Shown: piece after piece, positions 705 through 37,641 of the stretch
Position numbering within the stretch: position 1 is the first letter of the stretch
How the letters are laid out: the number at the start of each line of letters is the position of its first letter
Origin: Pseudomonadota bacterium
Lineage (GTDB): Bacteria > Desulfobacterota > Desulfobacteria > Desulfobacterales > JBDRRP01
NCBI GenBank assembly: GCA_043825735.1
Contig: JBDRRP010000064.1
Span: 62,001 to 101,644, forward strand
Direction of reading: 5' to 3'
Length of the DNA stretch: 39,644 nt
Program-made: the position numbers and the translations under genes
The notes under the pieces: generated by a model
Database searches by the model: none
Told to the model about the DNA's origin: nothing
What the model saw: the letters and a program-made list of their open reading frames with translations, nothing else

Positions 705-2609
705 ATGCCTCTTTTGAGTAGACGAAAATGCACAATGGCCGCAGCAGTTGTCGTACTATCGGCTTGCCTGCTGTGGCCGCCGACCGCCCGCACCGCCCTT
801 GTGTATAAAAACTACATCGTCCAGCAGGACAGCGGGATGGACATCCTTTGCGCCCCCTATACGGTGCAGCCGGGCGACTGGGTCATCAAAGTCCTCAAAC
901 TGAGAGGCGAAATCGCGTCCCAGGATTTCCCCTACTTCCTTCAGATCTTCGCCCGCATCAACCCGCACGTCAAAGACGTGAACCGGATTCGCCCGGGCCA
1001 GCAAATCTTTATCCCCTTGCGGGAGATGCCCACGGGCACATACCCGGCTCAGCAAAGCGGTCTGGTGACGATCCCCTTTGTGGATTTATCATCCAAGGCC
1101 ACTGTTTCTCTGGAAGCCGCAGCAGCCTACCGTGTCCGCCCCCGGGACAGCATATCCAAACTGGTGGCGAGCCGGTATGGACGCTATGGCAGCGCCGACT
1201 ATCAAGAAGGCATCAGACAGCTCCAAGCCCTCAATCCCCAAATCAAGGACCTGGATCTCATTTTCGTAGATCAAGTGATTTTTTTACCGACACAGCGGTC
1301 TCGGTCCGCACCCGTCGAAGTGCTGGCCAGCGCACCCGTCACCACCCGCGCCATTCCCAGAACGCCGGCCCCGTTGAAAAAGGATTTTGGTGACGGCCCG
1401 GGAGGCGGATCATCTGACGAAAGATCAGCGCCGTCGGATGTATCGCCCTTGTCTGAGGCCGCCGCCATGATGGAGGCCAGCCTTTTGGACAAGGGCACCT
1501 ATATCTTCCCCGGTGACAACAACCGCGCTGTGCGCATCGATTTATCGAAGACCCCGGTGATTGACCTGCCAGAAGGTCAAAAGATTTTGCTTTCAGGTGA
1601 AAAACCAATTGAAGACGCGGATCTCGCCGCGATCAAAACACAGTGGAAGCACTTTCGCCAGCTTAAGCTGCCGGCCAACGCATCCTTGGAACAGGTCCTC
1701 GACGCCGTGCTGGATACCCCCGAGAAGGGCGCTCCGCGTCAGAAAACCGTCCAGCTGAGCACCGGCGGAGCGACATTCAGTATTCGCCCCAAATGGCTGC
1801 TGAACGGCCCGGATACGGAAATGAACCCCATCCGGCACATCTGCATCACCCCCATTGATACCGGCGACCAACGGACCCCGTCGGGGGTGGTGCGATTTTT
1901 AGCCGGTCATGGCATCCGCATTCGAGAGGTCATCCGTGGCGGGACCAGCACCGCCGGCCGGACACCGGCTCAGCCACAACACTCCCGGCAGTCGACAACC
2001 CTTCAGATTACGGCCAGCGGGCACCGCCAATTGGTGGCCGACCTGCTCGAGGCCCTGGGCTATACCTTCACCCGCAATGTGGCCATTTCCTTTCCCTATG
2101 CCGGGATCGAAGTCAAGGCCATGTCCAATCTGGTGACGACCCGCAGCGGCAATCCCCTGTTTATCGATTTCGGCGACCTCTTTGGCGATGCCTTCAGCGC
2201 CATCACCAACACCGGGTTCAATATCATTCAGGTAACAGCTCAGGACGATCTTCTAACGGTCATCGACACGTTGATGACCGCTCTTGACGAACCGGTATCC
2301 GCGCAGCCGACGTTTCTCGCCGCCAACCGGCCCGAGCAATACAATACCCGCATCGGCATCCCGGGAAAACTGATGGGCGGCGATACCGGTGAGCGCACAC
2401 TGATCACGACAACGCCTATTGCCCTCCCCGTCAGCCAACTACTCAATGATCAGCAAGTGCGCATCATCATCGTCCAGACCCCCGACCGGCAAACACCGGC
2501 GGCAACGCAGCAGGATCTGTCGACACGTCCTGACGCCACGGCCATTGTCGGTGCGGCGGGACCGCCCCCCGACGACATCGTGCTTCACAAGGAGGTTAGC
2601 CAACCATGA
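705..2609 (+). CDS. Exported LysM peptidoglycan-binding domain protein (two LysM-like repeats)
   Basis: Hydrophobic N-terminal segment (AAAVVVLSACLLW); LysM-like motifs YTVQPGDW...INPHVKDVNRIRPGQQIFIP and YRVRPRDS...LNPQIKDLDLIFVDQVIFLP. Start uncertain (TTG603, ATG705 or ATG735). Stop overlaps the next ATG (ATGA). Confidence 0.8.
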   Translation: MPLLSRRKCTMAAAVVVLSACLLWPPTARTALVYKNYIVQQDSGMDILCAPYTVQPGDWVIKVLKLRGEIASQDFPYFLQIFARINPHVKDVNRIRPGQQIFIPLREMPTGTYPAQQSGLVTIPFVDLSSKATVSLEAAAAYRVRPRDSISKLVASRYGRYGSADYQEGIRQLQALNPQIKDLDLIFVDQVIFLPTQRSRSAPVEVLASAPVTTRAIPRTPAPLKKDFGDGPGGGSSDERSAPSDVSPLSEAAAMMEASLLDKGTYIFPGDNNRAVRIDLSKTPVIDLPEGQKILLSGEKPIEDADLAAIKTQWKHFRQLKLPANASLEQVLDAVLDTPEKGAPRQKTVQLSTGGATFSIRPKWLLNGPDTEMNPIRHICITPIDTGDQRTPSGVVRFLAGHGIRIREVIRGGTSTAGRTPAQPQHSRQSTTLQITASGHRQLVADLLEALGYTFTRNVAISFPYAGIEVKAMSNLVTTRSGNPLFIDFGDLFGDAFSAITNTGFNIIQVTAQDDLLTVIDTLMTALDEPVSAQPTFLAANRPEQYNTRIGIPGKLMGGDTGERTLITTTPIALPVSQLLNDQQVRIIIVQTPDRQTPAATQQDLSTRPDATAIVGAAGPPPDDIVLHKEVSQP

Positions 2610-3382
2610 AGCGTATCGTGTTCGCCCTGCTCTGCTGCGGCATCCTGACAGTGGCAACCGCCTGTAAAAGCACCACAGAAAACCAGATCAAACAGGCGGA
2701 AGCGCATCGAAAACTGGGAGAAGCGCATTTAATCGATGACAACTACATCGCCGCTTTGCGTGAATTCACGGCTTCCCAAAAGTTGCTTCCAACCGACCCG
2801 ATCGTCCACAACGACATCGGTCTGGTCTATCTGAGACGCGCCATGCTGCCCGATGCCCTGGCCGCCTTCCAAAAGGCGCTCTCCCTGAAGCCGGACTACG
2901 GCGACGCCCTTCTCAACTTGTCGGTAACCTATATGAGAATGGAACAGTGGGATAAAGCCATCAAACACCTGAAGACGCTCGAAGCCGACCTGCTTTACTC
3001 GGATTATCAAAATACGCAACTCAATCTGGGATATGCGTACTATATGAAAGGGGACTATGCCAACGCATCGATACACTACGCCAAGACCATCCAATATTAC
3101 GAGGACGGTTTTCGCAAAGATGTTACCTATGTCATGGCGTTGCTTGGGCAGGCGCGGGTTGCACTGAAAACCGGCAAAGCCGGAGCGGCCCTGTCCCTTA
3201 TTGACACCGCACTGGCTGAAGCGCCGCAGGCGGCGGAATTATATTTCTACAAGGGGGCCGCGCTCGAGATTCTTGGAAACAGCACGGCCGCACGAAACGC
3301 CTATATCAAAGTTATCGAACTCGCGCCCCAGGGAGACCTTTCACAAAAAGCCATCGATGCCTTAAGGGGACTGGCCAATTAG
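2606..3382 (+). CDS. TPR lipoprotein, PilF/PilW/Tgl pilotin-like
   Basis: SD AAGGAGG at 2589-2595; signal peptide with lipobox-like ATAC (Cys20); tandem TPR repeats; adjacent to pilQ. Confidence 0.75.
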   Translation: MKRIVFALLCCGILTVATACKSTTENQIKQAEAHRKLGEAHLIDDNYIAALREFTASQKLLPTDPIVHNDIGLVYLRRAMLPDALAAFQKALSLKPDYGDALLNLSVTYMRMEQWDKAIKHLKTLEADLLYSDYQNTQLNLGYAYYMKGDYANASIHYAKTIQYYEDGFRKDVTYVMALLGQARVALKTGKAGAALSLIDTALAEAPQAAELYFYKGAALEILGNSTAARNAYIKVIELAPQGDLSQKAIDALRGLAN

Positions 3383-3608: not shown

Positions 3609-6380
3609 TTATTTGGGAAGCTTGACAATCTGTGGATTAAGGAAGATGAGAAGCTCGTTTTTATCATTCGTCGTTGATTCCGTCTTGAATAGCCACCCCA
3701 GCAGCGGAATGTCCTTCAACCCCGGGACCCCGGTTTCCCCTTTTTTATCTTGTGTCACGGTGATACCGGCAATGACGATGGTGTCTCCGTCGTTCACGAT
3801 CAGCTCCGTGTTGGCCTCGTTGATGGTAAACTTGAAATTCGATCCGACCTGGTCCCCAAGGTCATTTTTGGTCACGCTGATCTTCATTGAAATCCGACCG
3901 TCCTTGGTCACATGAGGCGTCACCGTCAGTTCCAAAACGATGTCTTTGAACTCAGTGGTGGAGTTGCCGTCGGCGTCCAGTTTATTGATGGGATAACTGG
4001 TACCCTGCTTGATGGTGGCGGGCTTATTGTCCAGTGTCAGAATCTTCGGCGCCGAAATGGTCTTTGTCTCACCCTGCGACTCATAGAGATTCAGCTTGGC
4101 GGCAATGGTCAGCGGCGTGCCGGCCACCTTAATGTAGTCCAGTGCAAATGTCGCAGCCTTACTGCCGCCCTGCAAACCAGAGGTGGCAAAGTTCATGCCG
4201 ACGTCCCCGGACATCTTGCCCGGCAGCGACAGGCCACCGGTCGATGGTGTGGTTCCAGCGAACTCGGTGCCGAACTCTCGCGCAAAGTTGGTGGTGGCCT
4301 GTACCACCCGCGCTTCGATAAGCACCTGGTCGGTAACCCGGTCGAGTTCCTTAATCATTTCACCGACGGCGTTTTGGACCTCTCGGGTGTCCACAACGAT
4401 GAGCTGGTTGGTGGGCGTATAGACACTGACCTTACCACGGTCAGGTGTGATAATTGTTTGCACATGGGGCAGAATATCTCGCGAAGCATCCGCGTAGTTG
4501 ATCGGATAATACCCCGTTTCTAACGGCGCCAGTGCCCGTTCATTCGCCTTGGCGTCGATGGCCTGTTTCAATGCCTCGCTTCGGAGCTGCTCCTCCTGCT
4601 TGATGGTGGCCAGAGTAGCGACACGGACGATGTCCCCCTCGTAGACCATTCCCAATTGGTTCATCCGCAGTACGAGATCAAGGACCTGATCCCAGGGTAC
4701 CGGCTTGTCTAGAGATAGAGTAACCTTGCCGGCGACGTCTTTGTCAATGGCGTAGTTCTTCCCGCTGATTTCCCGAAGGATTCGAAATACGTTCTTGACA
4801 TCGGTTTCGTAGAAATCGAGGGCTATTTTCTCCCCGGTATACTTTCTGTCGGTAGTACGGTAATAGGTGCGCTTTTCATCATACGCGCCGGTATCTTCCG
4901 GAACCGTCACGTTTGCTAATGCGGGATCGGGTGAAGAACCCTTGGTTGCCATTTCGGGCGCAGCAGCTGCTGCCGGCACGGATGCTGCCATGGCCGCCTG
5001 ATCGATGGCCTTCTGCCAGTCGGGCAATCCGGCCTGTTCCAGCGGCCTTGGGGGCACGCTGGATGGATCGAAGTGAATCATGATCAAATCGTCGAGCTGT
5101 TCAATAGTATACGGTACCGCCTCGCGCAGTTCGATGGTGATCAACGACTTATCTTTCATTGTCGCGGTCTGGATCGGAGAAATCCTGTCGATGGCACTCT
5201 CGAAACGGGTTGTAATGAGCGGCCGCTGACGATACCCGGGAAGATTTGTGTCAAAAAGGGTCAGCAGCAGTTTCTGGTCGCCATCGGTATTCATGACATA
5301 CTTCACCGATTGCGTGGTTCCAACGATGATGGTCGATTTCCCATCTTTTTCGCTGCTAAAATCGATACGGTTCACCCAGGCCGGCTCACCACTACGCTTT
5401 GGTGCCGGTGCAGCGGCAGCGGCCGAAACCTGTTCCACTGGCGGGACAGTAACCGTTACCTGCGCTACCGGGGCCATGCGTTCACTTTTCGCACCGACAG
5501 TAACCACCAATCCGTCTTCAACAGTGTTGGCCTGAAACTGATCCAAAAAGGCATCTTCGGTGTCAATCACAACGCGGACCTTGTCAGGATATTTGAAGTG
5601 CCGGATCTTCTTCACCGCCTCGGTATTGACTGGAACGATCTGCTCACCTTTATAGGGGCTGTCAATGCCATATATGTCAAAAACGATTCTTGCAGGATTC
5701 TTGATGGTAAACGCATCGTATTCACGGATGGCGCCGTTGGCGGAAAATTTAATTGAAACCTCATCATCATGGGCAATGGCGCTGGCCCCGGCAAAAGCGG
5801 TGGCTGGCATCAACACCGCACCGGCCGGTGCGAGCACCTCGGATTGCACAGGCGCCAAGGCCTCTTGTGCGCTCTGCGCTTCGATGGCCGTGTCTTGCGA
5901 CGCCTCGGGGGCGATCAACGCCGGTTTATCGAATACGATTTTCAGTTCATTTCCCTGCCGGCTCACCGCGTATTCAGTATCGACCTTGAGTTTGATTTCG
6001 ATCCGAGATGTCGTTGAGGAACCAACGATTTCAGAAGCCTTGATCGATTCAATTAGGGTACTGTCCACTGGCATGCTGGCGCTGATGTTCTGCAATCGGG
6101 TGGACGGGAGATAAAGTACCACTGCCGGTGGATAAGGCTGTTTTACCGACGTATAGGTAAGGGCCTGGTCCCCGGAAATCAGAACGCTGACAAACGTATC
6201 ATCTTCCGTCGTCACGATATCGGACACCACACGCAATTGTGACTGCGATGCGAGGGCCACCGCCGCTGTCGGCTTGGCAGCCTGTTGCGGCGTCGCACAG
6301 CCGGTCAACAAAAAAACGAGCACAAGCGCCAGAGAGATGACGACGTGCCGCCCACCATACTTAACCATTATTGGCCGCAT
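3609..6380 (-). CDS. pilQ: Type IV pilus secretin PilQ with N-terminal AMIN domains
   Basis: YTGEKIALDFYETDVKNVFRIL, VPWDQVLDLVL and C-terminal secretin motif GVPGLKDIPLLGWLFK; AMIN-like repeats (e.g. NPARIVFDI); last gene of pilMNOPQ. ATG6380 preferred over TTG6395. Confidence 0.95.
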   Translation of the reverse strand: MRPIMVKYGGRHVVISLALVLVFLLTGCATPQQAAKPTAAVALASQSQLRVVSDIVTTEDDTFVSVLISGDQALTYTSVKQPYPPAVVLYLPSTRLQNISASMPVDSTLIESIKASEIVGSSTTSRIEIKLKVDTEYAVSRQGNELKIVFDKPALIAPEASQDTAIEAQSAQEALAPVQSEVLAPAGAVLMPATAFAGASAIAHDDEVSIKFSANGAIREYDAFTIKNPARIVFDIYGIDSPYKGEQIVPVNTEAVKKIRHFKYPDKVRVVIDTEDAFLDQFQANTVEDGLVVTVGAKSERMAPVAQVTVTVPPVEQVSAAAAAPAPKRSGEPAWVNRIDFSSEKDGKSTIIVGTTQSVKYVMNTDGDQKLLLTLFDTNLPGYRQRPLITTRFESAIDRISPIQTATMKDKSLITIELREAVPYTIEQLDDLIMIHFDPSSVPPRPLEQAGLPDWQKAIDQAAMAASVPAAAAAPEMATKGSSPDPALANVTVPEDTGAYDEKRTYYRTTDRKYTGEKIALDFYETDVKNVFRILREISGKNYAIDKDVAGKVTLSLDKPVPWDQVLDLVLRMNQLGMVYEGDIVRVATLATIKQEEQLRSEALKQAIDAKANERALAPLETGYYPINYADASRDILPHVQTIITPDRGKVSVYTPTNQLIVVDTREVQNAVGEMIKELDRVTDQVLIEARVVQATTNFAREFGTEFAGTTPSTGGLSLPGKMSGDVGMNFATSGLQGGSKAATFALDYIKVAGTPLTIAAKLNLYESQGETKTISAPKILTLDNKPATIKQGTSYPINKLDADGNSTTEFKDIVLELTVTPHVTKDGRISMKISVTKNDLGDQVGSNFKFTINEANTELIVNDGDTIVIAGITVTQDKKGETGVPGLKDIPLLGWLFKTESTTNDKNELLIFLNPQIVKLPK

Positions 6381-6381
6381 C

Positions 6382-7227
6382 TTACTCTTCTCCAAGTGGT
6401 TTTTGAAGTTTCAGTTCTTGCTTTCGGGTGATGACGTCCCCCAGGACGTTTTCTACTTCTTCTTCGATAACGACCCTGTTTTCTTCGATGTCGATCACGC
6501 GTCCGGCATTGGGCCCGATGTATGTCCCGTTTTTAACGACATACCCCTTGCCGGAGGCTTCCTGAACAATCGCACGGTTTCCGCTCTGCATGCGGATGAT
6601 GCCCACCAAGGTCAATTGGCCGAGACTGAGGCGCTCAAGGGGTGTCTGAGGAACACGCTTCTCCCTTTTCACCTTTGTCGTGGCGGTTGCGATCGTTTCT
6701 TGTGACGATTGCTTGAAAATCGGAGCAAAGGGATCGATTTTCCCCTCCGGGTTGTAAAATCGGGAACGGTAAAGTGAGTTCCCCTCGGTAGCCACTTTTT
6801 CCGTAAGATCCGCCATTGTGCCTTTAACGTCAATTTTTACTTGCTGAGTGACATCGTCCGCAGAATACCCAATCCCTGCGGGCAACGAAGGCACGGTTTT
6901 ACCCGTTGTTGGTGGTGCGGGCGTATCCGTCGCAACAGGAGCCGCCGGTGCTTCAACAGCTGGGGGCGCAACAGGTGAAGCCTTCGAGGGTTCCACCGGT
7001 GTTTGTGTCGATACCGCCTGTTCCGCTGTGGTCGACTGTTGTGGCGTCTTTTCTTGCGCAGCGGGAGCAGCAGCTGTTGGTGCTTCTGAAATGGTAATTT
7101 TTTGAGGCACCACTTTCGGCGCAGGCGGTGGCGCGTCAGCCCGCTCCCCACAGCCCCATGCACCGAAAAACAGCAAGCAGCTACAAAGGAAAACTATTCG
7201 GTGATAATTATGAGGTCGCATATTCAT
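6382..7227 (-). CDS. pilP: Type IV pilus assembly lipoprotein PilP with long Pro/Ala/Thr-rich linker
   Basis: Lipobox-like AWGC; YNPEGKIDPFAP and PLERLSLGQLTLVGII...GKGYVVKNGTYIGPNAGRV PilP motifs; between pilO and pilQ. Confidence 0.9.
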   Translation of the reverse strand: MNMRPHNYHRIVFLCSCLLFFGAWGCGERADAPPPAPKVVPQKITISEAPTAAAPAAQEKTPQQSTTAEQAVSTQTPVEPSKASPVAPPAVEAPAAPVATDTPAPPTTGKTVPSLPAGIGYSADDVTQQVKIDVKGTMADLTEKVATEGNSLYRSRFYNPEGKIDPFAPIFKQSSQETIATATTKVKREKRVPQTPLERLSLGQLTLVGIIRMQSGNRAIVQEASGKGYVVKNGTYIGPNAGRVIDIEENRVVIEEEVENVLGDVITRKQELKLQKPLGEE

Positions 7228-7246
7228 CCGGTTTCGTATAAGTTTA

Positions 7247-7879
7247 TTATTTCTGCCGCTTCTTTTTGTTTTTATCCTCTGACTGCGTTTTCTCGACGAA
7301 TTTATAAGTGACCGCAGTACAGGATGTATTCAGCTCCATTTTTCCTTCCGCAACCGGCTTCATATTAATATTTTTGATATTGACAATCCGATTCAGACTG
7401 GCAACACGATCGAAGAACTCGGCGACTTGATGAAAACCGCCCACAATGTTAATGGCAACCGAAATCTCCGCATAGAAGTCCTTTGAGACTTCCCCCGCCG
7501 GTTGAAAAAGCAAAAACTGAAGCCCCGCCTCTTTGCCGGACTGGGATACGCTTGTGAGCAGCGAAGGGATCTCCTGTTTTTCGGGAAGTGCCTTCATTAC
7601 AAGTTTATACCGATCTTCAGCCTCTTGCATCTTTTCACGCAATTTTGGCAATTGCGCGGCGTTTCGCTTGGCAACCACCAGCTTGCCTTCCAGATCACCA
7701 AGTTCAGTATTCAACTCTTCGATTCGCTGATATTTCGGCATCAGACCGAACCAGACAACCAGGCCGACAACTGTAAGGAAAGTGAGCGCATAAATCAGGA
7801 CCCGCTGCACCGTAGAAAGTTTTTCGATCCGCGCGATCACCGGTTCAAGTTTCTCAAGAGACAGCTTTATCTTTTTCAT
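7247..7879 (-). CDS. pilO: Type IV pilus assembly protein PilO
   Basis: One TM helix, coiled coil, LPEKQEIPSLL, FYAEI and GGFHQVAEFFDRVASLNRIVNI motifs; synteny. Confidence 0.93.
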   Translation of the reverse strand: MKKIKLSLEKLEPVIARIEKLSTVQRVLIYALTFLTVVGLVVWFGLMPKYQRIEELNTELGDLEGKLVVAKRNAAQLPKLREKMQEAEDRYKLVMKALPEKQEIPSLLTSVSQSGKEAGLQFLLFQPAGEVSKDFYAEISVAINIVGGFHQVAEFFDRVASLNRIVNIKNINMKPVAEGKMELNTSCTAVTYKFVEKTQSEDKNKKKRQK

Positions 7880-7890
7880 ACCGGCGCCTT

Positions 7891-8466
7891 CTAACTTTTA
7901 GTGACAACCATCGTTGGTGTAATGGGCGACTTTTGAAACATGATACTGAATGTTTTTAAAAAAATACTCGATTGAAATTGTATCTGCCTGGAAGATTGCA
8001 ATGTCACGTCTTTGAACCGGTCGACCGCCTCCAGGCGCAGCATGAACTCGGCGATAGTGCGGTTATCGATGGCCGTCCCGGAAAGCGAGACCTGCGTATC
8101 GGTGGCGCTGAAACTCGTGAGCCACATGCGCTCCGGCACGACGACCTGAGTCATCGTATCCATCAATCGGACGGCTTCCTCTCTGTTTGCGGCAAGCGAC
8201 TCGATCACCTCGGTCTTCTTCACAAGAATATCGAGCTGCTTTTTCAATACGGCGACTTCTCTGTTTTTCTTCTCATAAGTTTGAAGCTCTTCTTGCGTCG
8301 ACGACACCGCCGCCATTAACGTTGTCACCTGACCACCCAGGTAGGAATTATAATAAAACAATGCCAATCCTACCATAAGGACGGTCAGCAGAAACATCGA
8401 TATCTGGCGCCTAACATTCTCTTTTTTCCGTGCCGCACGAAACGGCAGCAGGTTGATTCTGATCAT
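7891..8466 (-). CDS. pilN: Type IV pilus assembly protein PilN
   Basis: N-terminal MIRINLLP signature, TM helix, coiled coil; ATGA overlap with pilM. Confidence 0.95.
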   Translation of the reverse strand: MIRINLLPFRAARKKENVRRQISMFLLTVLMVGLALFYYNSYLGGQVTTLMAAVSSTQEELQTYEKKNREVAVLKKQLDILVKKTEVIESLAANREEAVRLMDTMTQVVVPERMWLTSFSATDTQVSLSGTAIDNRTIAEFMLRLEAVDRFKDVTLQSSRQIQFQSSIFLKTFSIMFQKSPITPTMVVTKS

Positions 8467-9521
8467 TTGTCGTCCACTTTTCTCAGTGCAAGGCCCATGC
8501 AGATCGCAGCCTGCGGGGCGATATGTTGAATATAGGAAGCTTCAAAATCCCCTTCGTTGATATCAAAAGCGGAAAACGGGTCAATCATTTGGACTTCCGA
8601 TGACGTTTCGGCGGCGAGTAGCTCTCTGAATTCAGTAATATTGGCGCCGCCGCCACTTAGAACGATCTGCTTGATCTGGTCATCTGGATCGGTCGAGTAG
8701 AAAAAATCCAACGCGCGCCTTATCTCTGAGCACCAGTCTGAAACGACGGATGATATGATTTCTCTTAGGTCTTCCGCTGAGACACTGTCTGAATGATCGC
8801 TCAGTTTGATTTCTTCAGCTTCTTCAATTGAACAATCGATAAGTGAAGCAATCTTTGCGTTGATCTGGTTGCATCCGAGAGAGACATCACGCATAAATAC
8901 CGAATTGCGCCCCTTCAAAATGTTTAATGATGTCTTTGCAGCGCCGATGTCAATCAGCGCAACCGTGTCCTCTCCCTCCTCATGGTTGAATTCATGAATA
9001 TTTTGAAGTGCAAAGGCATCGACGTCGATGACACACGGGTTAAGCCCCGCCAACTGGCTCAGGCTCACATAATCATCAATCATTTCTTTTTTGGCCGCTA
9101 CCAGCAGCACGTTCATCTGATTCGGGTTCGCCTCGTTTTCACCCAAAATCTGAAAGTCGAGATTCACATCATTGATGTCGAACGGGATATATTGTTCTGC
9201 CTCGAAATGGATAGTCTCTTGAAGCTCCTCTTCAGTCATCGTCTGAACATTGATTTTCTTTACGATGACAGAATACCCCCCGATCGACATCGCCACATTC
9301 TGGTCTTTAATATTGCTGGATTTGAACAGCTCTTTTATCGCTGCAGCCACTTTCTCAGGATCTTTGATGACGCCTTCCTCAATAGCGCCATGCGGGATTT
9401 CAATGAGTCCAAAACGCTTGAGACTCATCCCGTTTTTTGATTCCTGGAGCTCCGCGGCCTTTATCGACTTGCTGCCGATATCCAGCCCCACTAAATGTGT
9501 ACTTTTTTTGGTGAGAAACAT
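8463..9521 (-). CDS. pilM: Type IV pilus assembly actin-like protein PilM
   Basis: VGLDIGSKSIK, EAEQYIPF, IDIGA and LSGGGA motifs of FtsA/PilM. Confidence 0.95.
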   Translation of the reverse strand: MFLTKKSTHLVGLDIGSKSIKAAELQESKNGMSLKRFGLIEIPHGAIEEGVIKDPEKVAAAIKELFKSSNIKDQNVAMSIGGYSVIVKKINVQTMTEEELQETIHFEAEQYIPFDINDVNLDFQILGENEANPNQMNVLLVAAKKEMIDDYVSLSQLAGLNPCVIDVDAFALQNIHEFNHEEGEDTVALIDIGAAKTSLNILKGRNSVFMRDVSLGCNQINAKIASLIDCSIEEAEEIKLSDHSDSVSAEDLREIISSVVSDWCSEIRRALDFFYSTDPDDQIKQIVLSGGGANITEFRELLAAETSSEVQMIDPFSAFDINEGDFEASYIQHIAPQAAICMGLALRKVDDK

Positions 9522-10070: not shown

Positions 10071-10132
10071 GCATAAGAAAGATTGCGGAAATATTGCCGC
10101 CAACGATTGACCTACGATTCAGCGTGATCCTG

Positions 10133-11566
10133 ATGACAGCCAAGCCCTCGGATCCAGTCGCCGAGGAAAAAACAAAATCCTTCCGGTTGGTCAAGTACTT
10201 TTCATTTTCCAGCCTGATCGTCATTTTCATTGGTACGCTTGTCCTTTCGATGCTCAACACCCACTGGGCGCGGCGAACGCAACTCAAGCAAAGTGAAGAA
10301 TTTGCCAGGCTGCTCATCGAAAATCTCAATCATCAGGTTTTTCTTCAATTTATCCTTCCAGTAGTCCTTAAATATGGGAAGGTTCAACTCAGAGATCCGG
10401 AACAGTATGACCGGATGGATACCGTGGTGCGGGCAACGCTGTACAGTTTCAATGTCGAGCAGGTCAGCATCTACGATCAAAATCATACCATCGCCTATAG
10501 CTTTGACAAATCGCTCCTCGGCACGCGGCGGCTCGCCGCGAAAAGCTACCTCGAAGCCCTGCGAGGGGTTCAGAGTTCAAGGGTCATCCAGATTGGCTCC
10601 AGCTGGGAGATATTCTTTGGCATCCCCAAAAAAAGCCGTATGGTCAGCATCGCCCCGCTAAGGGCCGAGGAGAAGCTGGCCCGACCCTCTGGACCCATTC
10701 TCGGCATCGTTGAAATTACCCAGGACCTGACCCCTCAATATCGTGAAATTTTTCAGTTTCAGATTCTTATCATCCTCAATGTCGCTATTGTCATGATGGG
10801 ATTGTTCGTCGTATTGCTGCTGGTCGTCAAACGCGGTGAATCGATCATCGAAAAGCGCGCTCTTGAACGCATGCGGCTCAAAGAGCGCCTTGCAAAGGCC
10901 GAGCACTTATCTTCCTTGGGAGAAATGGTGGCTGGTGTATCGCATGAAATCAGAAACCCATTGGGAATTATTCTGAGCTCAGCCAATCTTTTGCGCAAAC
11001 AGATGCCCCCGGCAGACCGCCTGAGCCATATCTCGAATATCATTTTGGAAGAGGCGGGCCGCCTCAATGGCATCATCACGGACTTTCTCAATTTCGCCCG
11101 CCCTCAGCAACCCGACCTTCAGAGTTGCAGCGTCGAATCCGTTCTGGAAAAAAATATCAATTTCCTGAAGACTCAGATCGAAGGGAAAGGTTATGACATC
11201 CACTATCTCGCCAAGGCACACCTGCCGGATATCATCGCCGATGCAAATATGCTCTACCAAGCATTTCTCAACATCATGCTTAATGCCATTCAGGCGATGC
11301 CCGGCGGCGGTCCAATCCACATTGATCTGTTTGAGAAAGATGATCACGTCCACGTGACATTTACAGACAGTGGCCCCGGCATTCCCGAAACACTCATCGA
11401 AAAAGTCTGGGATCCGTTTTTTACAACCAAGGACGGCGGCACCGGACTGGGGTTGGGGATTGTAAGAAAAATAATACTAGCCCACAGCGGACAGATTGAT
11501 ATTTCAAACGCCCCCGGTGGCGGCACTCATATCGCCATCCGCCTTCCAATCCGACCCGGAGATTAA
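10133..11566 (+). CDS. Membrane sensor histidine kinase (NtrB/PilS-like)
   Basis: Two TM segments around a periplasmic domain; H-box SHEIRNPL, N-box NIMLNAIQAM, DSGPGI, PFFTTK and GTGLGL. Start ATG10133 or TTG10094. Confidence 0.92.
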   Translation: MTAKPSDPVAEEKTKSFRLVKYFSFSSLIVIFIGTLVLSMLNTHWARRTQLKQSEEFARLLIENLNHQVFLQFILPVVLKYGKVQLRDPEQYDRMDTVVRATLYSFNVEQVSIYDQNHTIAYSFDKSLLGTRRLAAKSYLEALRGVQSSRVIQIGSSWEIFFGIPKKSRMVSIAPLRAEEKLARPSGPILGIVEITQDLTPQYREIFQFQILIILNVAIVMMGLFVVLLLVVKRGESIIEKRALERMRLKERLAKAEHLSSLGEMVAGVSHEIRNPLGIILSSANLLRKQMPPADRLSHISNIILEEAGRLNGIITDFLNFARPQQPDLQSCSVESVLEKNINFLKTQIEGKGYDIHYLAKAHLPDIIADANMLYQAFLNIMLNAIQAMPGGGPIHIDLFEKDDHVHVTFTDSGPGIPETLIEKVWDPFFTTKDGGTGLGLGIVRKIILAHSGQIDISNAPGGGTHIAIRLPIRPGD

Positions 11567-11568
11567 CA

Positions 11569-12957
11569 ATGGACACGGTACTCATTGTTGACGACGAAAA
11601 AAACTACCCCCCTATTCTCAGCGCAGTCCTTGAAGAAGACGGCTTCGGCACGCTTTCCGCCTTCAGCGCACGGGAAGCGCTTGAACTCATAGAAAACTCC
11701 GATGTCGATCTCGTGCTTGCCGATATGAAGATGCCTGAAATGGACGGCATTGCTTTGCTGGAAAACATTAAACAAAGAAACCCGGATCTTCCGGTCATTA
11801 TGATGACGGCGCACGGAACCGTTGAAAAGGCAGTGGAGGCCATGCAGAAGGGGGCCCATAATTTTATTTTGAAGCCTTTCGACAATGACCAACTGGTCAT
11901 TTATGCCAAAAAAGCGATTTCGCTATACCGGGTCGTCAAGGACAACCAGCGGCTGCGAAGTGCTGTGGAGCACCAATACAATTTCGGCAACATCATCGGC
12001 AAGAGCATGGCCATGAAAGACGTCTTTGAGACGATTCGCAAAGTGGCACCGGCTCAGGCCACCGTACTGATCGAAGGCGACAGCGGCACGGGAAAGGAGC
12101 TGGTTGCCAAATCCATTCATTTTAACAGCCAGCGCCGGCATCGACCGTTTATTGCTGTTAACTGCTCGGCACTGGCCGAATCCCTGCTGGAAAGCGAACT
12201 CTTCGGACACGAAAAAGGGGCCTTCACTGGAGCCGCCGGTACAAAAAAGGGGCGTTTCGAAATCGCCGACGGTGGCACACTGTTCCTGGATGAAATAGGG
12301 GAGCTGAGTCAAAGCCTTCAGGTAAAACTACTTAGGGTATTGCAGGAAAAAACCTTTGAGCGAGTTGGGGGACTGAAACCGATATCGGTGGATATCCGCG
12401 TCATCGTCGCCACCAACAAACGATTGCGGGAGGAGGTCGCTGCCGGCCGGTTCAGGGAGGATTTGTTTTATCGCCTCAATGTCGTGCACATTACTTTGCC
12501 CCGCCTGCAGGAACGACCGGAGGATATCAGACTGCTGGTTGATCACTTCATCCCAAAATACCAATCGGAAAGACGGGGGCAGCCGCCTATCACGGGCCTT
12601 GATCCGGAAGTGGAACGCCTTTTTCTGGACTACAACTGGCCGGGAAATGTGAGGGAACTGGAAAACGTTATCGAACGGGCCCTAATTTTGTGCGAAGGCG
12701 GCGACATCCGGGCCTCCGATCTACCCAGAGATTTCCGAGACCATGTCTATAACATACTCCACCTGGATGGTATCCCTGCCGACGCCAAGCTCTACGACAC
12801 ACTGGAGATGGTGGAAAAAAAGATGATCGAAAGGGCCTTGAAACTGTCGGAAGGGATTCAGGTGCATGCTGCCGAAATGCTGGGAATCGGAAAGAGCGGA
12901 TTGAATCAGAAGCTCAAACGGCACCATATTTCATCGGACCAGAAATCAAAAATATAA
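11569..12957 (+). CDS. Sigma54-dependent response regulator (REC-AAA+-Fis HTH, NtrC family)
   Basis: Receiver (LIVDDE, LADMKMP, KPF), Walker A GDSGTGKE, intact [33 protein letters not shown]-terminal HTH; starts 2 bp after the kinase stop. Confidence 0.95.
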
Positions 12958-13009
12958 AATAATATCCATCATCTCAGATGGTTATAATTGATGTCTCTTT
13001 TCGTGAACA

Positions 13010-13109
13010 GGCGGTTCAAAATTATGAACATCCCCATAGGGAGGGGAAAAACCAGTTATATCAGGTATCTTATGCTGCCCGCCGAAAAGGGCGGTTTAAA
13101 ATTATGAAC
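13010..13109. promoter_or_regulatory. Paired upstream activator-like sites
   Basis: GGCGGTTCAAAATTATGAAC (13010-13029) and GGCGGTTTAAAATTATGAAC (13090-13109), 19/20 identical, 80 bp apart; palindromic core GTTCA-N6-TGAAC. Confidence 0.6.
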
Positions 13110-13250
13110 CCATGGCGCTATTTGTAGACACCGTCACCCGGCACCATCGACGTGCCATGGCGCACCGCCCCGCCTCCGACCAATTGTAACCCGTTGTAAT
13201 TAATCCAATAACAGCCATCGCCGCATCCAATCGAAACACCGCGAAGCGGT

Positions 13251-13266
13251 TGGCATGGAACCTGCT
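13251..13266 (+). promoter_or_regulatory. Sigma54 (-24/-12) promoter
   Basis: TGGCATGGAACCTGCT, with GG at 13252-53 and GC at 13264-65 in exact GG-N10-GC spacing; close to consensus TGGCACG-N4-TTGCW. Confidence 0.7.
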
Positions 13267-13276
13267 TAAAGAATAA

Positions 13277-13351
13277 GCAAGCCTAATGACTTCTTCATCT
13301 GTTTCCTCCTTAATGGCTGACCGGTAACCCGCCGGCCAGCCATTTCCTTTT
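13277..13351 (+). ncRNA. Candidate sigma54-dependent small RNA (~75 nt) with anti-Shine-Dalgarno seed
   Basis: Bounded by the -24/-12 promoter and a hairpin with U-rich tail; no credible plus-strand CDS; contains CUUCUUCAUCUGUUUCCUCCUU. Confidence 0.6.
13312..13351 (+). terminator. Intrinsic terminator-like hairpin
   Basis: AATGGCTG-a-CCGG [TAACCCG] CCGG-c-CAGCCATT followed by TCCTTTT on the plus strand. Confidence 0.6.
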
Positions 13352-13389
13352 GAAAAGGCCCCGAAACAAAACGGCATACCGTTGCCCTC

Positions 13390-14085
13390 TCATCCCGCCT
13401 TTGTTTTTGCTGTGATGAGCTCGACATACTGAGAATCGGGATACTTTTCCGACAAAGACCGAAAAGCGTCATCCCTGCGCGCGGTATTGCCGGTGGCATT
13501 AAAAACCAGTCCCATCTGGAAAAATGCGGCATCGGCCATTCCGGCACCCGTTCCGTCGGCAATCTGCTGGAGCGCCGTAACGGCTTGATCGTATTGCTTA
13601 AGGGCAATATGCGCCTGGGCCACGCTCTCGAGAATCCGGTAATGAAAAAATGAGGTGGCGCCAAAGTATCCTAGGGTTTCCCGGTACAATGAAATGGCCT
13701 CGGCGAAGTTGCCTGCGGCAAGCTTGGCATCCGCATAGAACAACCGCCCCAGATGCCCAGCCGATTGACTGCCGTATCGCCCCAGCAGATCCGCCATGGC
13801 TGTTTCAATGCCGGTTAAGGCCTGGACCGGCGACTGTCCATCGGCCAGGGCTTTCTCATACTGACTGACAACATCTTGAACCCCCAGAGAAGCGGCATCC
13901 TCCCAGCGCGTGTTCAGGTACCGGTAGGTCGCCAGTCCGACAATAACAGCGAAAAAGACACCCACCGTCACAGACAGAAGTTTTCGGTGCGTTCTGAAGA
14001 ATGAAATCGTCTTTCCCGAAAACGTAATGAACTCATCGGGCTCCTTGAGCAATTGCTTGCGTGTAATCTTGTATTTCCCCATCAT
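13390..14085 (-). CDS. Membrane-anchored TPR protein (YfgM-like)
   Basis: N-terminal RKQLLKEPDEF, single TM helix, TPR-like helices, C-terminal YPDS. Confidence 0.75.
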   Translation of the reverse strand: MMGKYKITRKQLLKEPDEFITFSGKTISFFRTHRKLLSVTVGVFFAVIVGLATYRYLNTRWEDAASLGVQDVVSQYEKALADGQSPVQALTGIETAMADLLGRYGSQSAGHLGRLFYADAKLAAGNFAEAISLYRETLGYFGATSFFHYRILESVAQAHIALKQYDQAVTALQQIADGTGAGMADAAFFQMGLVFNATGNTARRDDAFRSLSEKYPDSQYVELITAKTKAG

Positions 14086-15207: not shown

Positions 15208-15765
15208 TCACCACACCAACGAACGGTATATCCAGCCGCCGTCTCCGTCGGCATGTTCAATCCGTAGCCAATTGTGACGATGTTCAAGCACCTTGAAGGG
15301 AACGCCGTCGCCAACGGAAAACACCACGGGGAACTGGGTACCGGGCCCGGAGCGCACATTGCATTTGTCATCAGCGGTAATGACCGTTTCCATCGACCCG
15401 ACAAGAGAGTTGTGAATATATCCGGTGTCGCCCTGGTAGTCTCGAAACCGGATCCACGGCCCTGATCTTTCGATAACAATTAGGGGATGGTATTGTTCGA
15501 TCTGCCACAGGACATCATAGGCCGTTCCGGGACCGGATCTGATATTGGCTACCGGCGAAGCAACCGACAACCGCTCCGCGGCCCCGAGCGCCGGCCACAC
15601 CAAAACGGTGATCAGCGCTGCCAGCAGCATGCGTATCGGTTTTCCCGACCCAATTGCATAGCGCTTTTCACCATGCCGAGAAATCGCACGGTGGCGCGCT
15701 GGGCAGGCGCCACGATCTGCCGCGCGCCTGGAAAAGGGTTTCCCGATCGCAATCAAATAAGTCAT
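15208..15765 (-). CDS. Exported protein with two bacterial SH3 domains
   Basis: Two repeats ANIRSGPGTAY...W...GYIH and CNVRSGPGTQF...W...GWIY after a hydrophobic signal (MLLAALITVLVWPALG). Start either ATG15765 (overlaps feoB stop) or ATG15630. Confidence 0.8.
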   Translation of the reverse strand: MTYLIAIGKPFSRRAADRGACPARHRAISRHGEKRYAIGSGKPIRMLLAALITVLVWPALGAAERLSVASPVANIRSGPGTAYDVLWQIEQYHPLIVIERSGPWIRFRDYQGDTGYIHNSLVGSMETVITADDKCNVRSGPGTQFPVVFSVGDGVPFKVLEHRHNWLRIEHADGDGGWIYRSLVW

Positions 15766-17945
15766 CGGATCCCCAGCAAGATACCAATCTGATACGCACA
15801 AAAGGCGGTGGCCCATGCAATACCGGTGCTGTATACCACGCTGAACGCCGTCCAGCCAAGCGATCCGGTCTCCCGGCGGATCGCGGCCACCGTCGCCAGG
15901 CAAGGGACATATAGCAACACGAATATCATCATCGAAAATGCCGATAGCGGTGTCATCCCTGACTTTTGAAGCGCCTGGCGAAGGGCATCTGATCCGGCGT
16001 CGTGATCAATAGCATGGAGCACGCCGAGGGTGCTCACCACCACCTCCTTTGCCACGAACCCCGTAATGAGAGCCACCCCGCCGCGCCAGTCGATCCCCAG
16101 CGGAGCAAAAACCGGTGCCAGCCATTGCCCCAATCGGCCGAGAAAGGAGTGCTCGACACGCCGGGCGTCGTATATGCTCTGGAGTCCGGAAATCTGTCGG
16201 GTGGCGGCATCTTCAACCGCCTGGCGCTGATACGGTGCGCGGGTGATCTGTTGGGAAGCCTCGGTTCGGATCTCGGATACGGCCCGATCAAAACGGTCCA
16301 TCTCCCCGAGATCCCGAGGGAAAGTGCTCAGTGCCCAAATAACAATTGAACCGATCAGAATGATGCCGCCCATTTTTTTGAGAAACAGCTTGCTCCGATC
16401 CCACATGTGAATCAACAGGCTTTGTATCATGGGGATGCGGTATGGCGGCAACTCCATGACAAAGGGCGCTTCCACCCCTTTGAGCAGGGTCGCGCTGAAC
16501 AGCCGTCCCGACACCACTGCCAGAGAGATACCTACCAGATAGACGACAAATATGACCGATCCGCCCCGGGGGCCGAAAAACGCTCCGGCAAGAATAATGT
16601 AAACGGGCAATTTGGCAGAACACGACATGAATGGCGTGATAAGAATGGTCAGCACCCGATCCTTTTCACTTTCCAGCGTCCGTGCAGCCATGATTGCCGG
16701 CACATTGCACCCGAACCCCATCAGCATGGGGATAAAGGACTTGCCATGAAGACCGATGGCGTGCATGACTTTGTCCATGAGAAAGGCGGCGCGTGCCATG
16801 TAGCCGGTGTCCTCGAAAAGCGCGATGCAGAAAAACAAAATCAGAATGTTGGGCAGGAAGATGATGACGCTGCCGACACCGGCGATAATACCGTTGAGTA
16901 TCAGATCTTTGAAAAGACTGGCTGGCAGCAGGCTGCCCGCCATGGCGTTGACTCCGGCCACGAGCCCCTCCAGCCATCCCATGGGATAGTCTCCCAGGCG
17001 GAAGGTCAACTGAAACATTCCCCAGATAAAGAGAAAAAATATAGGATACCCCAGATAGCGGTGGGTCAGCACCATATCGACATTACGCGAAATATCGACC
17101 CGGTTGCCGGGAGAAATGGTGAGTACCTCACGGATGATGCCGGCGATAAAACCGTAGCGCTCATCGGTCATGATGATCTCAGGGTCATCGTCATAGCGGC
17201 TGTGCAGTCGCTCCCGGAGCCGCCGGACCGCATCGAGAATGCGTTCGCCACGGGTGTCGAACCGCTGGAGGATCCGCTCCTTGAGAATCTTGTCGTCTTC
17301 CAGCAATTTGATGGCGGTCCATCGCAGGTTGTAAGAAAGATCCCTCTCGGGGATTTGGGAAAGGATGATCCCCTGCAACTCCGAAATAGCGGTCTCGATA
17401 TCCGCCGAGTATTTCACGCGGCGCCGACAGGGCATGCTCGGAATATCGGTGGCCATGGCGACCACCTGAACCATCAAATCATCGAGTCCTTCCTTACGAT
17501 TGGCAACAGTGAGCACCACTGGTACATTGAGTAGATCCGACAGTTTTTCGGTATCGATACGCATCCCCCTGGAGCGCGCCACGTCAGCCATATTGAGCGC
17601 AAAAATGACGCGGCAGTCGATTTCACGCATCTGGGTAGCCAAATACAGGCTGCGCTCAAGATTCGACGCATCGATGATACTCACCACCACGTCTGGCCGC
17701 GCCTCAAGCAGAAAATCACGGGCGACGACCTCCTCTATAGAAAACGGCGTGAGGCTGTAAGTGCCCGGCAAATCGACAATATTAAGAGCAGTCCCGTTGC
17801 GGTGGATGAGCCCTTCCTTCTTTTCCACCGTAACCCCCGGCCAGTTGCCCACTTTCTGACGGGTGCCGGTCAACACATTGAAAATGGTCGTCTTGCCGGA
17901 GTTCGGGTTGCCCGCCAGGGCGATGGTGTATGTCTTGTCTGCCAT
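15762..17945 (-). CDS. feoB: Ferrous iron transport protein B
   Basis: GNPNSGKT, GNWPGVTVE, DLPGTYSL, NMAD; gate motifs GFGCNVPA, FMSCSAKLP, FVMELPPY, LLYVPCLA. Confidence 0.97.
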   Translation of the reverse strand: MADKTYTIALAGNPNSGKTTIFNVLTGTRQKVGNWPGVTVEKKEGLIHRNGTALNIVDLPGTYSLTPFSIEEVVARDFLLEARPDVVVSIIDASNLERSLYLATQMREIDCRVIFALNMADVARSRGMRIDTEKLSDLLNVPVVLTVANRKEGLDDLMVQVVAMATDIPSMPCRRRVKYSADIETAISELQGIILSQIPERDLSYNLRWTAIKLLEDDKILKERILQRFDTRGERILDAVRRLRERLHSRYDDDPEIIMTDERYGFIAGIIREVLTISPGNRVDISRNVDMVLTHRYLGYPIFFLFIWGMFQLTFRLGDYPMGWLEGLVAGVNAMAGSLLPASLFKDLILNGIIAGVGSVIIFLPNILILFFCIALFEDTGYMARAAFLMDKVMHAIGLHGKSFIPMLMGFGCNVPAIMAARTLESEKDRVLTILITPFMSCSAKLPVYIILAGAFFGPRGGSVIFVVYLVGISLAVVSGRLFSATLLKGVEAPFVMELPPYRIPMIQSLLIHMWDRSKLFLKKMGGIILIGSIVIWALSTFPRDLGEMDRFDRAVSEIRTEASQQITRAPYQRQAVEDAATRQISGLQSIYDARRVEHSFLGRLGQWLAPVFAPLGIDWRGGVALITGFVAKEVVVSTLGVLHAIDHDAGSDALRQALQKSGMTPLSAFSMMIFVLLYVPCLATVAAIRRETGSLGWTAFSVVYSTGIAWATAFCAYQIGILLGIR

Positions 17946-17952
17946 GGAAGGG

Positions 17953-18900
17953 TTACCGGATGTTTTCTACGGAAATGTTCTCGGCCTCATCGACCCGCAG
18001 CGAAATATGAGCGCCTTTAATAACCAGTTCCAGGGGGTCTCTGAGGGGGGCGTATTTTTCGACGACCACTTCCACCCCTTTCAGAAATCCCATTTCCAAA
18101 AGGCGCCGCCGAAGGGCGCTGTGCCCCCCGACCCGCGCGATGGTGGCGCGCTGGCCTTCTTCCAGGAGGCTCATGGGCACGCAGGGCAGCGTCTCGCAAA
18201 CCCGGCTCTCGTCGTGGCCGCCATCCACTTGAGGCGCCACAACGATCTTTCGGGAAAGCCCGCGCCCCAGGGCATAGCGCTTTCCGGCCACGGCCACAAC
18301 AACCTGCCCCTCGCCCATATTGGTGATGATATCGAGGACGTCACCCACCCGCAGGCCCATGGCCATCAACCGCATCCGTGTACCCGTCCCGCCGGTGATC
18401 TCCATTATCGTCACACGCTCTCCAGGCCGGGTGACGATAAGGGGCAAGCGCTGCACTTGCTCCTTTCGGCAGATATCGCAAATGCCGTAGAGCTCCATCC
18501 GGTGCTGTAGCAGATGAAAGCCGTAGGCCGCTGCAATGTTTTCCTGCAGCGACTCCAGATCGTCTTCTGTAAACTCGACGATCCGGCCGCACTTGGTGCA
18601 GATCATGTGATCGTGGTGCTGCCCCAGGTGGCGGTGCTCGTAGCGGGCGTCCCCGTTTCCGAATCGATTTTCGTAGGCGAACCCGTATCGGCACATCAGC
18701 TGCATCGTATCACTGACAAACACCTCCGGAAAATTGCGGCCGGCCGTTTCAAGGGCAGCCATCACATCGGAGATGGTCACATGACCTTCTATCTGGAGAA
18801 ATACATCTAGAATCGCGTAGCGATCTTCGAAGCGATCGATATTTTCCTGCAGAAACAGCTCTCGGAACTGCTGCTTTTCCTTGGAATGAATTTGTCGCAT
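17953..18900 (-). CDS. Fur-family metalloregulator fused to two FeoA domains
   Basis: Fur motifs HHDHMICTKCG and HRMELYGICDIC, then RLMAMGLRVGD and RRRLLEMGFLKG...APLRDPLE...ISLRVDEA (two FeoA domains); 7 bp upstream of feoB. Confidence 0.88.
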   Translation of the reverse strand: MRQIHSKEKQQFRELFLQENIDRFEDRYAILDVFLQIEGHVTISDVMAALETAGRNFPEVFVSDTMQLMCRYGFAYENRFGNGDARYEHRHLGQHHDHMICTKCGRIVEFTEDDLESLQENIAAAYGFHLLQHRMELYGICDICRKEQVQRLPLIVTRPGERVTIMEITGGTGTRMRLMAMGLRVGDVLDIITNMGEGQVVVAVAGKRYALGRGLSRKIVVAPQVDGGHDESRVCETLPCVPMSLLEEGQRATIARVGGHSALRRRLLEMGFLKGVEVVVEKYAPLRDPLELVIKGAHISLRVDEAENISVENIR

Positions 18901-37314: not shown

Positions 37315-37641
37315 ATGCCGACGGAATTTGGGGATCTCATAAAAAAAGCCATGCTGACCGGTATCGGACTGGCGCTGAAAGGCAAAGACGAAGTCGAAGC
37401 GTATTTCAATGATGTTGAAAAGCAGCTCAATCTTGGCGAAAAAGACGGGCGCCAGTTCTTTGAGGATTTCCGGAAGCATTGGGACGAAATGCAAGAAAAG
37501 CTGGAAGATCGCATCGAAAAGTCCGTGCGCAGCATCATGAAAAAAGCCGACGTGGTCACCATGGACGAGCTCAAGGCATTGAAAAAAGAAATTCGCGAGC
37601 TCAAGAAAGCCATCGGAAAAGACAGCGAACCGACTGCGTAG
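37315..37641 (+). CDS. Phasin-like coiled-coil protein
   Basis: SD TAAGGAG; LIKKAMLTGIGL...VTMDELKALKKEIRELK pattern; directly upstream of a UbiB kinase. Confidence 0.7.
   Translation: MPTEFGDLIKKAMLTGIGLALKGKDEVEAYFNDVEKQLNLGEKDGRQFFEDFRKHWDEMQEKLEDRIEKSVRSIMKKADVVTMDELKALKKEIRELKKAIGKDSEPTA

Follow-up and report, generated by a model that had tools for sequence, protein, structure and literature searches.

Behind the gene for a two-component response regulator of a Desulfobacterales bacterium lies a short stretch of DNA (GenBank assembly GCA_043825735.1, contig JBDRRP010000064.1) that can be read in two ways. On the minus strand it offers a textbook translation start followed by a ten-codon peptide beginning Met-Lys-Lys (MKK), whereas the plus strand would encode a small RNA (sRNA) whose leader, here called the seed, is antisense to just such a start. 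Which strand carries the gene, and on what would its product act? We addressed this question in 39,644 nucleotides of the contig (positions 62,001 to 101,644, forward strand; the window, to which all coordinates refer) and in related genomes. The locus is very probably a plus-strand sRNA gene. With moderate confidence, we regard it as a trans-acting, sigma-54-dependent sRNA through which, judged from the sequence, the adjacent two-component system would chiefly act and which would pair with the messenger RNAs (mRNAs) of major porins.

The predicted transcription unit and its conservation

The initial annotation, made from the letters of the window alone, had described a complete translation start on the minus strand, and inspection confirmed it: the Shine-Dalgarno (SD) sequence lies opposite 13305-13312, the 6-nt spacer at 13299-13304 and the ATG at 13298, and the ten codons end at a stop opposite 13266-13268. 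On the plus strand, anti-SD, anti-AUG and anti-Lys sequences stand directly 5' of a terminator. This arrangement goes beyond chance, as the unit of promoter, seed and terminator recurs at 25 of 50 regulator-anchored loci (16 of 30, the present locus included, and a further 9 of 20 judged by eye). For this set, orthologues of the regulator, which occur across the order, were collected from 61 genomes and the DNA behind 50 of them was read; the seed was not used for choosing, and three of the loci broke off no more than about 400 bp behind the regulator. By eye, the anti-AUG triplet is kept in 21 of the 25 units.

At the sequence level the unit is a stand-alone non-coding gene with its own promoter and intrinsic terminator. 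We assign the promoter to sigma-54 by its consensus; the genome encodes rpoN, and the regulator-anchored relatives have the same motif in the same place. A scan for sigma-70 promoters and terminators detected neither this promoter nor the terminator. The 36-nt leader is pyrimidine-rich and weakly folded, and it is followed by a hairpin with a folding z-score of -4.1 (0 of 200 shuffles). Among the copies, 13 of the 13 terminator pairs have changed on both sides and 90.5% of the cells are paired (0 of 500 shuffles; slid controls, 19-51%). When the stem is read on the plus strand, 46 G-U pairs face 14 A-C/C-A pairs (our own tally), which favours this strand. A four-pair 'hairpin' in model R1 was rejected as an RNA structure, because it represents the near-palindromic promoter.

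To follow the minus-strand frame through evolution, the regulator-anchored loci were combined with the listed loci of a pattern scan of GTDB, which gave 98 distinct copies, including a single chance match (L075). The scan had returned at least 120 loci, many of them chance matches lacking a terminator in unrelated phyla. Since its pattern demands the anti-AUG, its matches were not used to judge seed conservation. If the frame were translated, as a leader peptide, a type I toxin or a decayed gene start, the plus strand would be antisense or nothing. The perfect SD with its 6-nt spacer speaks for such a peptide, as does the agreement of the commonest readings in their first five or six residues. 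However, the frame ranges from 3 to 43 codons over the 98 copies; in 13 copies it comprises four codons, in most cases because the A-run has slipped by one base, and in three the ATG is lost. As neither frame nor length is conserved, a type I toxin-antitoxin or leader-peptide reading frame was rejected. Moreover, a promoter scan found none before the frame on the minus strand, the SD has the hairpin immediately in front of it, and both the U-tail and the G-U pairs face the plus strand. At none of the 98 loci is there a longer minus-strand gene with such a start, so that the sequences show no sign of the frame being the decayed 5' end of one; a 132-amino-acid frame that shares its stop gave no match in Pfam. 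The translated peptide is thus largely refuted and extremely improbable. The conserved unit, the variation of the frame and the covariation of the terminator all support what the initial annotation had supposed, namely an RNA gene on the plus strand.

A covariance model matches 51 of the 61 genomes of the order at E <= 0.01 and 48 at E <= 1e-4; part of these genomes belonged to the training set, and the E-values are rough. When the phylum was sampled evenly, 23 of 141 genomes gave a match, 19 of these outside the order. Sixteen out-of-order loci were read; seven lie directly behind a regulator with 53-58% identity, and the out-of-order copies keep the anti-SD with more varied flanks. No paralogue was found in this genome by BLAST, regular expression or covariance model. 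Rfam 15 gave no match at the gathering threshold in the window and three chance matches (E 3-5) in 12950-13400, and a literature search confined to open papers brought up no account of the RNA. The family is apparently undescribed.

Several copies depart from the common form. In L107, L121, L154, L158, L008 and L146 the 5' part of the seed carries a short internal duplication, making the RNA about 12 nt longer. At L049 (G028:C31), which the model misses, a regulator with 61% identity is followed by a sigma-54 promoter and a terminator with a leader of much smaller length between them, which may be a reduced version of the RNA. More than one copy, in part arranged in tandem, is present in L095 (Desulfonema magnum), L130, L144, G051 and G046; those in tandem are 290-500 bp apart (L095:2500-2902, L130, L144, G051:C1:4038526-4039135). 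In the D. magnum pair the anti-SD differs between the copies, and only the first has the enhancer pair.

A role in cis, as antisense to read-through from the neighbouring TPR gene, or as a decoy for a pyrimidine-binding protein has also to be weighed. The unit and this gene stand tail to tail, separated by 40 bp, and the usual RNA chaperones were not found: Hfq was detected in none of the 61 genomes searched, with 5 of 14 control genomes positive, and ProQ was not found in the present genome. On the other hand, the same seed is kept in many copies that have unrelated neighbours, face either way or form tandems, and we therefore consider a cis-acting or protein-binding RNA very unlikely. The result for Hfq and ProQ fits a long seed acting unaided; another chaperone is possible.

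Porin mRNAs as candidate targets

Pairing partners in this genome were predicted for a home-made set of 5228 gene starts by an IntaRNA-like computation that takes accessibility into account. A heuristic labelled 540 genes (10.3%) as encoding signal peptides. These genes make up 11 of the top 25 predictions (p 1.5e-5), 17 of the top 50 (p 5e-6) and 25 of the top 100, and thus the enrichment in exported-protein starts for which the initial annotation had suggested such a scan is indeed present. With the 25 bases at the 5' end of the seed shuffled, nine times over, their share of the top 50 is 8-22%, and with the anti-SD part alone 20%, as compared to 34% for the real seed. The anti-AUG/anti-Lys part thus biases the predictions towards exported proteins.

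Ranks 4 and 7 of 5228 fall to two divergent predicted porin genes on contig C27. One encodes 361 amino acids without a Pfam match, and its structural model (predicted local distance difference test, 78) matches DcaP, OmpT and other general porins (Foldseek E 5e-13); the other encodes a 516-residue Porin_4 protein. Upon shuffling of the 5' seed part the two porins drop to ranks 166-851 and 17-503. The genes of this pair (G000:C27:2737-9677) are about 4 kb apart, and the arrangement recurs in G003, G013, G020 and probably G069. The seed had initially been called the exact complement of a translation start. This is correct for a generic start; of the real starts in this genome, the best ones pair over 17-21 bases with bulges or G-U pairs.

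In relatives, the starts of the homologues of these porins (porin A and porin B) resemble the reverse complement of the seed. Leaving out duplicates and partial genes, we counted the genes with AG before the start and purine-only codons 2 and 3: by our own tally there are 28 among 45 porin genes (18 of 33 for porin A, 10 of 12 for porin B) versus 1 of 28 for Pal and 0 of 28 for HU. On this start pattern, HU and Pal were rejected as targets that shaped the seed.

By eye, seed and porin start have private changes in common in several lineages. G025 has a perfect complement of 27 bases that includes an altered SD (L018, L258). In G048, where 24 pairs are continuous, a C of the spacer is absent from both partners (L034, L256), and in G047, with 27 continuous pairs, Arg replaces the second Lys on both sides (L043, L213). 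About 26 pairs form in G017, both partners lacking the G before the AUG (L035, L212). The seed of G013 makes 19 perfect pairs with porin B, whereas its match to porin A amounts to 15 pairs that span the start (L005, L259, L196). The match in Desulfatitalea alkaliphila covers 32 positions with one mismatch and one G-U, the RNA being located 300 bp downstream of that porin gene (L099), and a second Desulfatitalea genome shows the same variant in seed and porin start (L054, L217). Within the genus of the present organism the seed opposes AAG AAG, and porin A starts with AAG AAG (L002, L003, L184, L185; L195 in the same family). In G003, a porin B homologue (L254, G003:C1:623317-624858) is interrupted by an in-frame TGA behind its first 101 codons, although its start and the seed match well; this reflects either a broken gene or a sequence error.

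A pattern derived from the seed gave 27 matches in five other genomes and one in the reversed control. Five were the RNA itself and one was a duplicate; the 21 remaining places comprise 15 exported-protein genes, nine of them barrel-like. Each of the five genomes has at least one barrel-like match, and three of the nine were judged by signal peptide and terminal Phe only. Together with the excess of signal-peptide genes in the top 25 and top 50, which depends on the anti-AUG/anti-Lys part, these matches would also suit a broad class regulator that mimics the start of a generic signal-peptide gene and for which porins are merely the best-fitting members. However, the pattern result is partly built in, since MKK starts are common in exported proteins. 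Even so, MKK opens only 6.5% of the signal-peptide genes in this genome, and only 50 of the 540 (9.3%) pair below -10 kcal/mol, whereas 180 of the 230 genes below this bar have no signal peptide. Most exported-protein genes do not rank high, and Pal does not keep the start pattern. The initial annotation had proposed broad silencing of envelope-protein mRNAs and named two candidates in the window, a pilotin-like and a phasin-like gene. Both exist (a TPR protein gene, 2606-3382, and a phasin-family gene, 37315-37641), but they rank 1614 and 1813 of 5228. Broad silencing is thus not supported by the scan, and we deem a general regulator of this kind unlikely.

Another option is that the sRNA has other true targets, such as HU, enzymes or a conserved gene of unknown identity, and that the porin fit stems from the purine-rich starts of abundant genes. 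HU ranks first, followed by an unknown exported protein (rank 2) and, in third place, a TctC binding protein; the top 15 also include rubrerythrin and a chaperone-like gene, and Pal is at rank 19. Solute-binding protein genes hold ranks 3, 13 and 33. Purine-rich leaders precede most Pal (0.85) and HU (0.81) genes as well, and many RNA-bearing genomes match neither porin query. Yet HU genes have AG before the start in 7 of 28 cases and purine-only codons 2 and 3 in 0 of 28, so that HU cannot explain the conserved anti-Lys part. The lineage-specific matches of 24-32 nt to porins likewise argue against this option, which appears quite unlikely.

We therefore return to porin mRNAs, which are rather likely to be the main targets. 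Several observations weigh against this assignment. Seventeen of the 45 porin starts miss the seed-matching pattern, and seed and porin fit poorly in G018, G077, G007 and the second porins of G044 and G073. The porin A profile matched 5 of 20 and 7 of 25 RNA-bearing genomes, and that of porin B 9 of 30. The shared changes are anecdotal, being hand-picked by eye, and ancestry or base composition could explain part of them. Efficient translation may by itself be the reason why highly expressed porins retain starts of this kind. HU comes first in the scan, 14 of its top 25 predictions lack a signal peptide, and its gene calls, signal-peptide labels and pairing program were home-made. Finally, four RNA runs, in which the organism is hardly represented (6% of the words in one run, none in three), give no cover of 12961-13383; apart from two stretches of the TPR gene, their contigs hold regulator fragments that stem from other organisms.

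Enhancer sites and neighbouring genes

The coordinates of the locus are compiled in Table 1. The palindrome is the top-scoring site of the genome, and of the 20 genome sites above the score bar the RNA locus holds the only pair. This unique pair suggests that the regulator acts mainly through the RNA; none of the other sites offers a second paired enhancer that would point to further regulon members. Among the copies with enough flank, 79 of 94 have the palindrome upstream, mostly paired near -225 and -145. It is also kept where the RNA lies far from the regulator, with ten relocated copies bearing a palindrome in one set. At nine regulator-adjacent loci (L011, L014, L018, L019, L053, L080, L085, L125 and L169) promoter and seed are intact and the enhancer pattern is unmatched within 290 bp; here the motif may have diverged together with the regulator. 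A GC-rich inverted repeat (13051-13092) lies between the two palindromes.

Table 1. Features of the sRNA locus and adjoining genes (window coordinates)
Feature	Position	Strand	Remarks
Membrane sensor histidine kinase, HisKA + HATPase_c	10094..11566	+	start possibly 10133; domain search and translation
NtrC-type response regulator (sigma-54 enhancer-binding protein)	11569..12957	+	Receiver, sigma-54 activator and HTH_8 domains
Enhancer palindrome 1, GTTCA-N6-TGAAC	13014..13029	.	237 bp before promoter motif
Enhancer palindrome 2, GTTCA-N6-TGAAC	13094..13109	.	80 bp after palindrome 1
IHF-like site between enhancers and promoter	13187..13199	-	by eye against the consensus
Sigma-54 promoter	13250..13265	+	GG 13252-53, GC 13264-65; transcription start inferred near 13277
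Ten-codon MKK frame	13266..13298	-	by-product of the seed, no conserved gene
Predicted small RNA, about 75 nt	13277..13351	+	promoter, fold, alignment, covariance model
Seed	13281..13312	+	anti-codons 2-6, anti-AUG (13296-13298), anti-spacer, anti-SD (13305-13312)
Intrinsic terminator with U-rich tail	13312..13351	+	hairpin 13312-13344
TPR_21 gene, convergent with the RNA	13390..14082	-	domain search

The kinase, presumed to be the upstream sensor, has a Cache-like outer domain flanked by two hydrophobic segments. Its atlas look-alikes are unnamed or of the Cache type and point to no nameable signal. The NtrC-type regulator, the presumed activator of the RNA, scores under every NCBIfam cut-off shown. 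The TPR_21 gene, which we take to be YfgM-like, is a conserved neighbour of the regulator; the RNA does not require it, given the many copies in other contexts. Elsewhere in the window, a pilMNOPQ type IV pilus operon (3609-9521, minus strand) diverges from the kinase/regulator pair, and a Fur domain fused to two FeoA domains (17953-18900, minus strand) is encoded directly upstream of feoB (15762-17945, minus strand).

A proposed circuit and its relation to known systems

The following sequence of events would account for the anatomy of the locus. The kinase would sense an outside signal, upon which the phosphorylated regulator would bind the two palindromes and fire the sigma-54 promoter, as arrangement and conservation of these sites suggest. 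The resulting RNA of about 75 nt would expose its 36-nt leader, which is computed to pair over 17-32 bases across the SD, spacer, AUG and first Lys-Lys-(Leu/Ile) codons of major porin mRNAs. Such pairing would block ribosome loading and thereby repress synthesis, and its length may permit action without Hfq. A smaller, secondary set of targets may consist of further mRNAs for exported proteins whose starts resemble those of porins (other barrels, solute-binding proteins, Pal).

A more far-reaching version, which we find conceivable but doubtful, envisages an sRNA that is as old as the phylum, needs no chaperone and has as its seed a complete antisense copy of a porin start, possibly generated by inversion. 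It would co-evolve base for base with the porin leader of each lineage, read the Lys-Lys-Leu codons of signal peptides and throttle a selected class of mRNAs for outer-membrane barrels, through which sulfate reducers would control their envelope. Antisense capture of an inverted start and continued selection for pairing would yield the same picture. The near-perfect complementarity to porin starts and the occasional linkage (adjacent genes in L099, a porin pair 3 and 7 kb from the RNA locus in G003) are compatible with capture, whereas the free use of G-U positions and the other-class homologues, which keep mainly the anti-SD, do not point to it.

In organisms with a part in corrosion, souring and the degradation of hydrocarbons, porin levels determine the uptake of substrates, biocides and metals. 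Desulfobacterales rank among the major sulfate reducers in sediments, a group of bacteria whose regulation by RNA has barely been described. With an RNA family that spans the order and comes with its activator, its enhancer motif and named candidate targets, a whole circuit becomes testable at once. If the proposal is true, porin control by sRNA arose independently, under sigma-54 and in a lineage that showed no Hfq, and the natural compensatory pairs would allow one to study how a long seed can stand in for a chaperone and how sRNAs come into being. A 2019 preprint on DseA describes itself as the first to suggest a definite sRNA role in Desulfovibrio (10.1101/803072).

The coupling of an activator gene to a sigma-54-dependent sRNA, and its presence in multiple copies as in Qrr, is a module that the present locus shares with known systems. 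Qrr1, GlmY and Pxr are sigma-54 sRNAs adjoining their activator genes. Targets and lineages differ from theirs, and our RNA has no Rfam match. In D. vulgaris, a related sulfate reducer, sigma-54 non-coding RNAs lie downstream of DVU0653 and DVU0679, with their function given as unknown there, and others are under DVU1419 and DVU2359 (PMC4641369, PMC3333781). The DVU0653 and DVU0679 loci have the same order of response regulator, enhancer sites, sigma-54 promoter and, directly downstream, non-coding RNA. By eye, the listed enhancer motifs and the DNA-binding domains of the regulators differ from ours, and identity with these systems was rejected on the enhancer motifs. Of 36 listed DNA-binding domains, that of DVU3305 is the closest by eye. 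DVU3304/DVU3305 is a general-stress two-component system with palindromes paired 76-81 bp apart near -225 and -145, also in several relatives (PMC4641369), and thus with the paired-site geometry seen here. Its palindrome is GTTGC-N5-GCAAC, however, and its targets are protein-coding (a Lon-domain regulator and membrane proteins).

By analogy, the RNA can be compared with the alphaproteobacterial sRNAs AbcR1/AbcR2 and NfeR1. AbcR1 and AbcR2 are 114-121 nt long, carry two 8-nt anti-SD motifs, are bound by Hfq and stand under LsrB and RpoH1 (PMC8844928). A single-stranded anti-SD motif, solute-binding protein mRNAs among the predictions and tandem siblings in some genomes are common ground. AbcR represses many mRNAs for ABC solute-binding proteins; in our scans several genes of this type were placed high, but the majority of exported-protein genes were not. 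Unlike AbcR, the present RNA is about 75 nt long, with sigma-54 control, no Hfq found and one long seed whose one anti-SD is extended into the coding region.

The nearest functional counterparts would be the porin-repressing sRNAs MicF, MicC, MicA and RybB, which employ Hfq as matchmaker and are under sigma-E or OmpR control. Vibrio VrrA acts on outer-membrane protein mRNAs without strictly needing Hfq (PMC2628432). As in these cases, we are dealing with a short RNA with its own promoter and terminator, the leader of which is predicted to be complementary to the 5' region of porin mRNAs. In contrast to the MicF/VrrA type, control lies with sigma-54 and an enhancer-binding two-component regulator rather than with sigma-E or OmpR, neither Hfq nor an Rfam match was found, and the seed covers the whole initiation region. 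The RNA is thus probably a sigma-54-driven, chaperone-free porin repressor of the MicF/VrrA kind.
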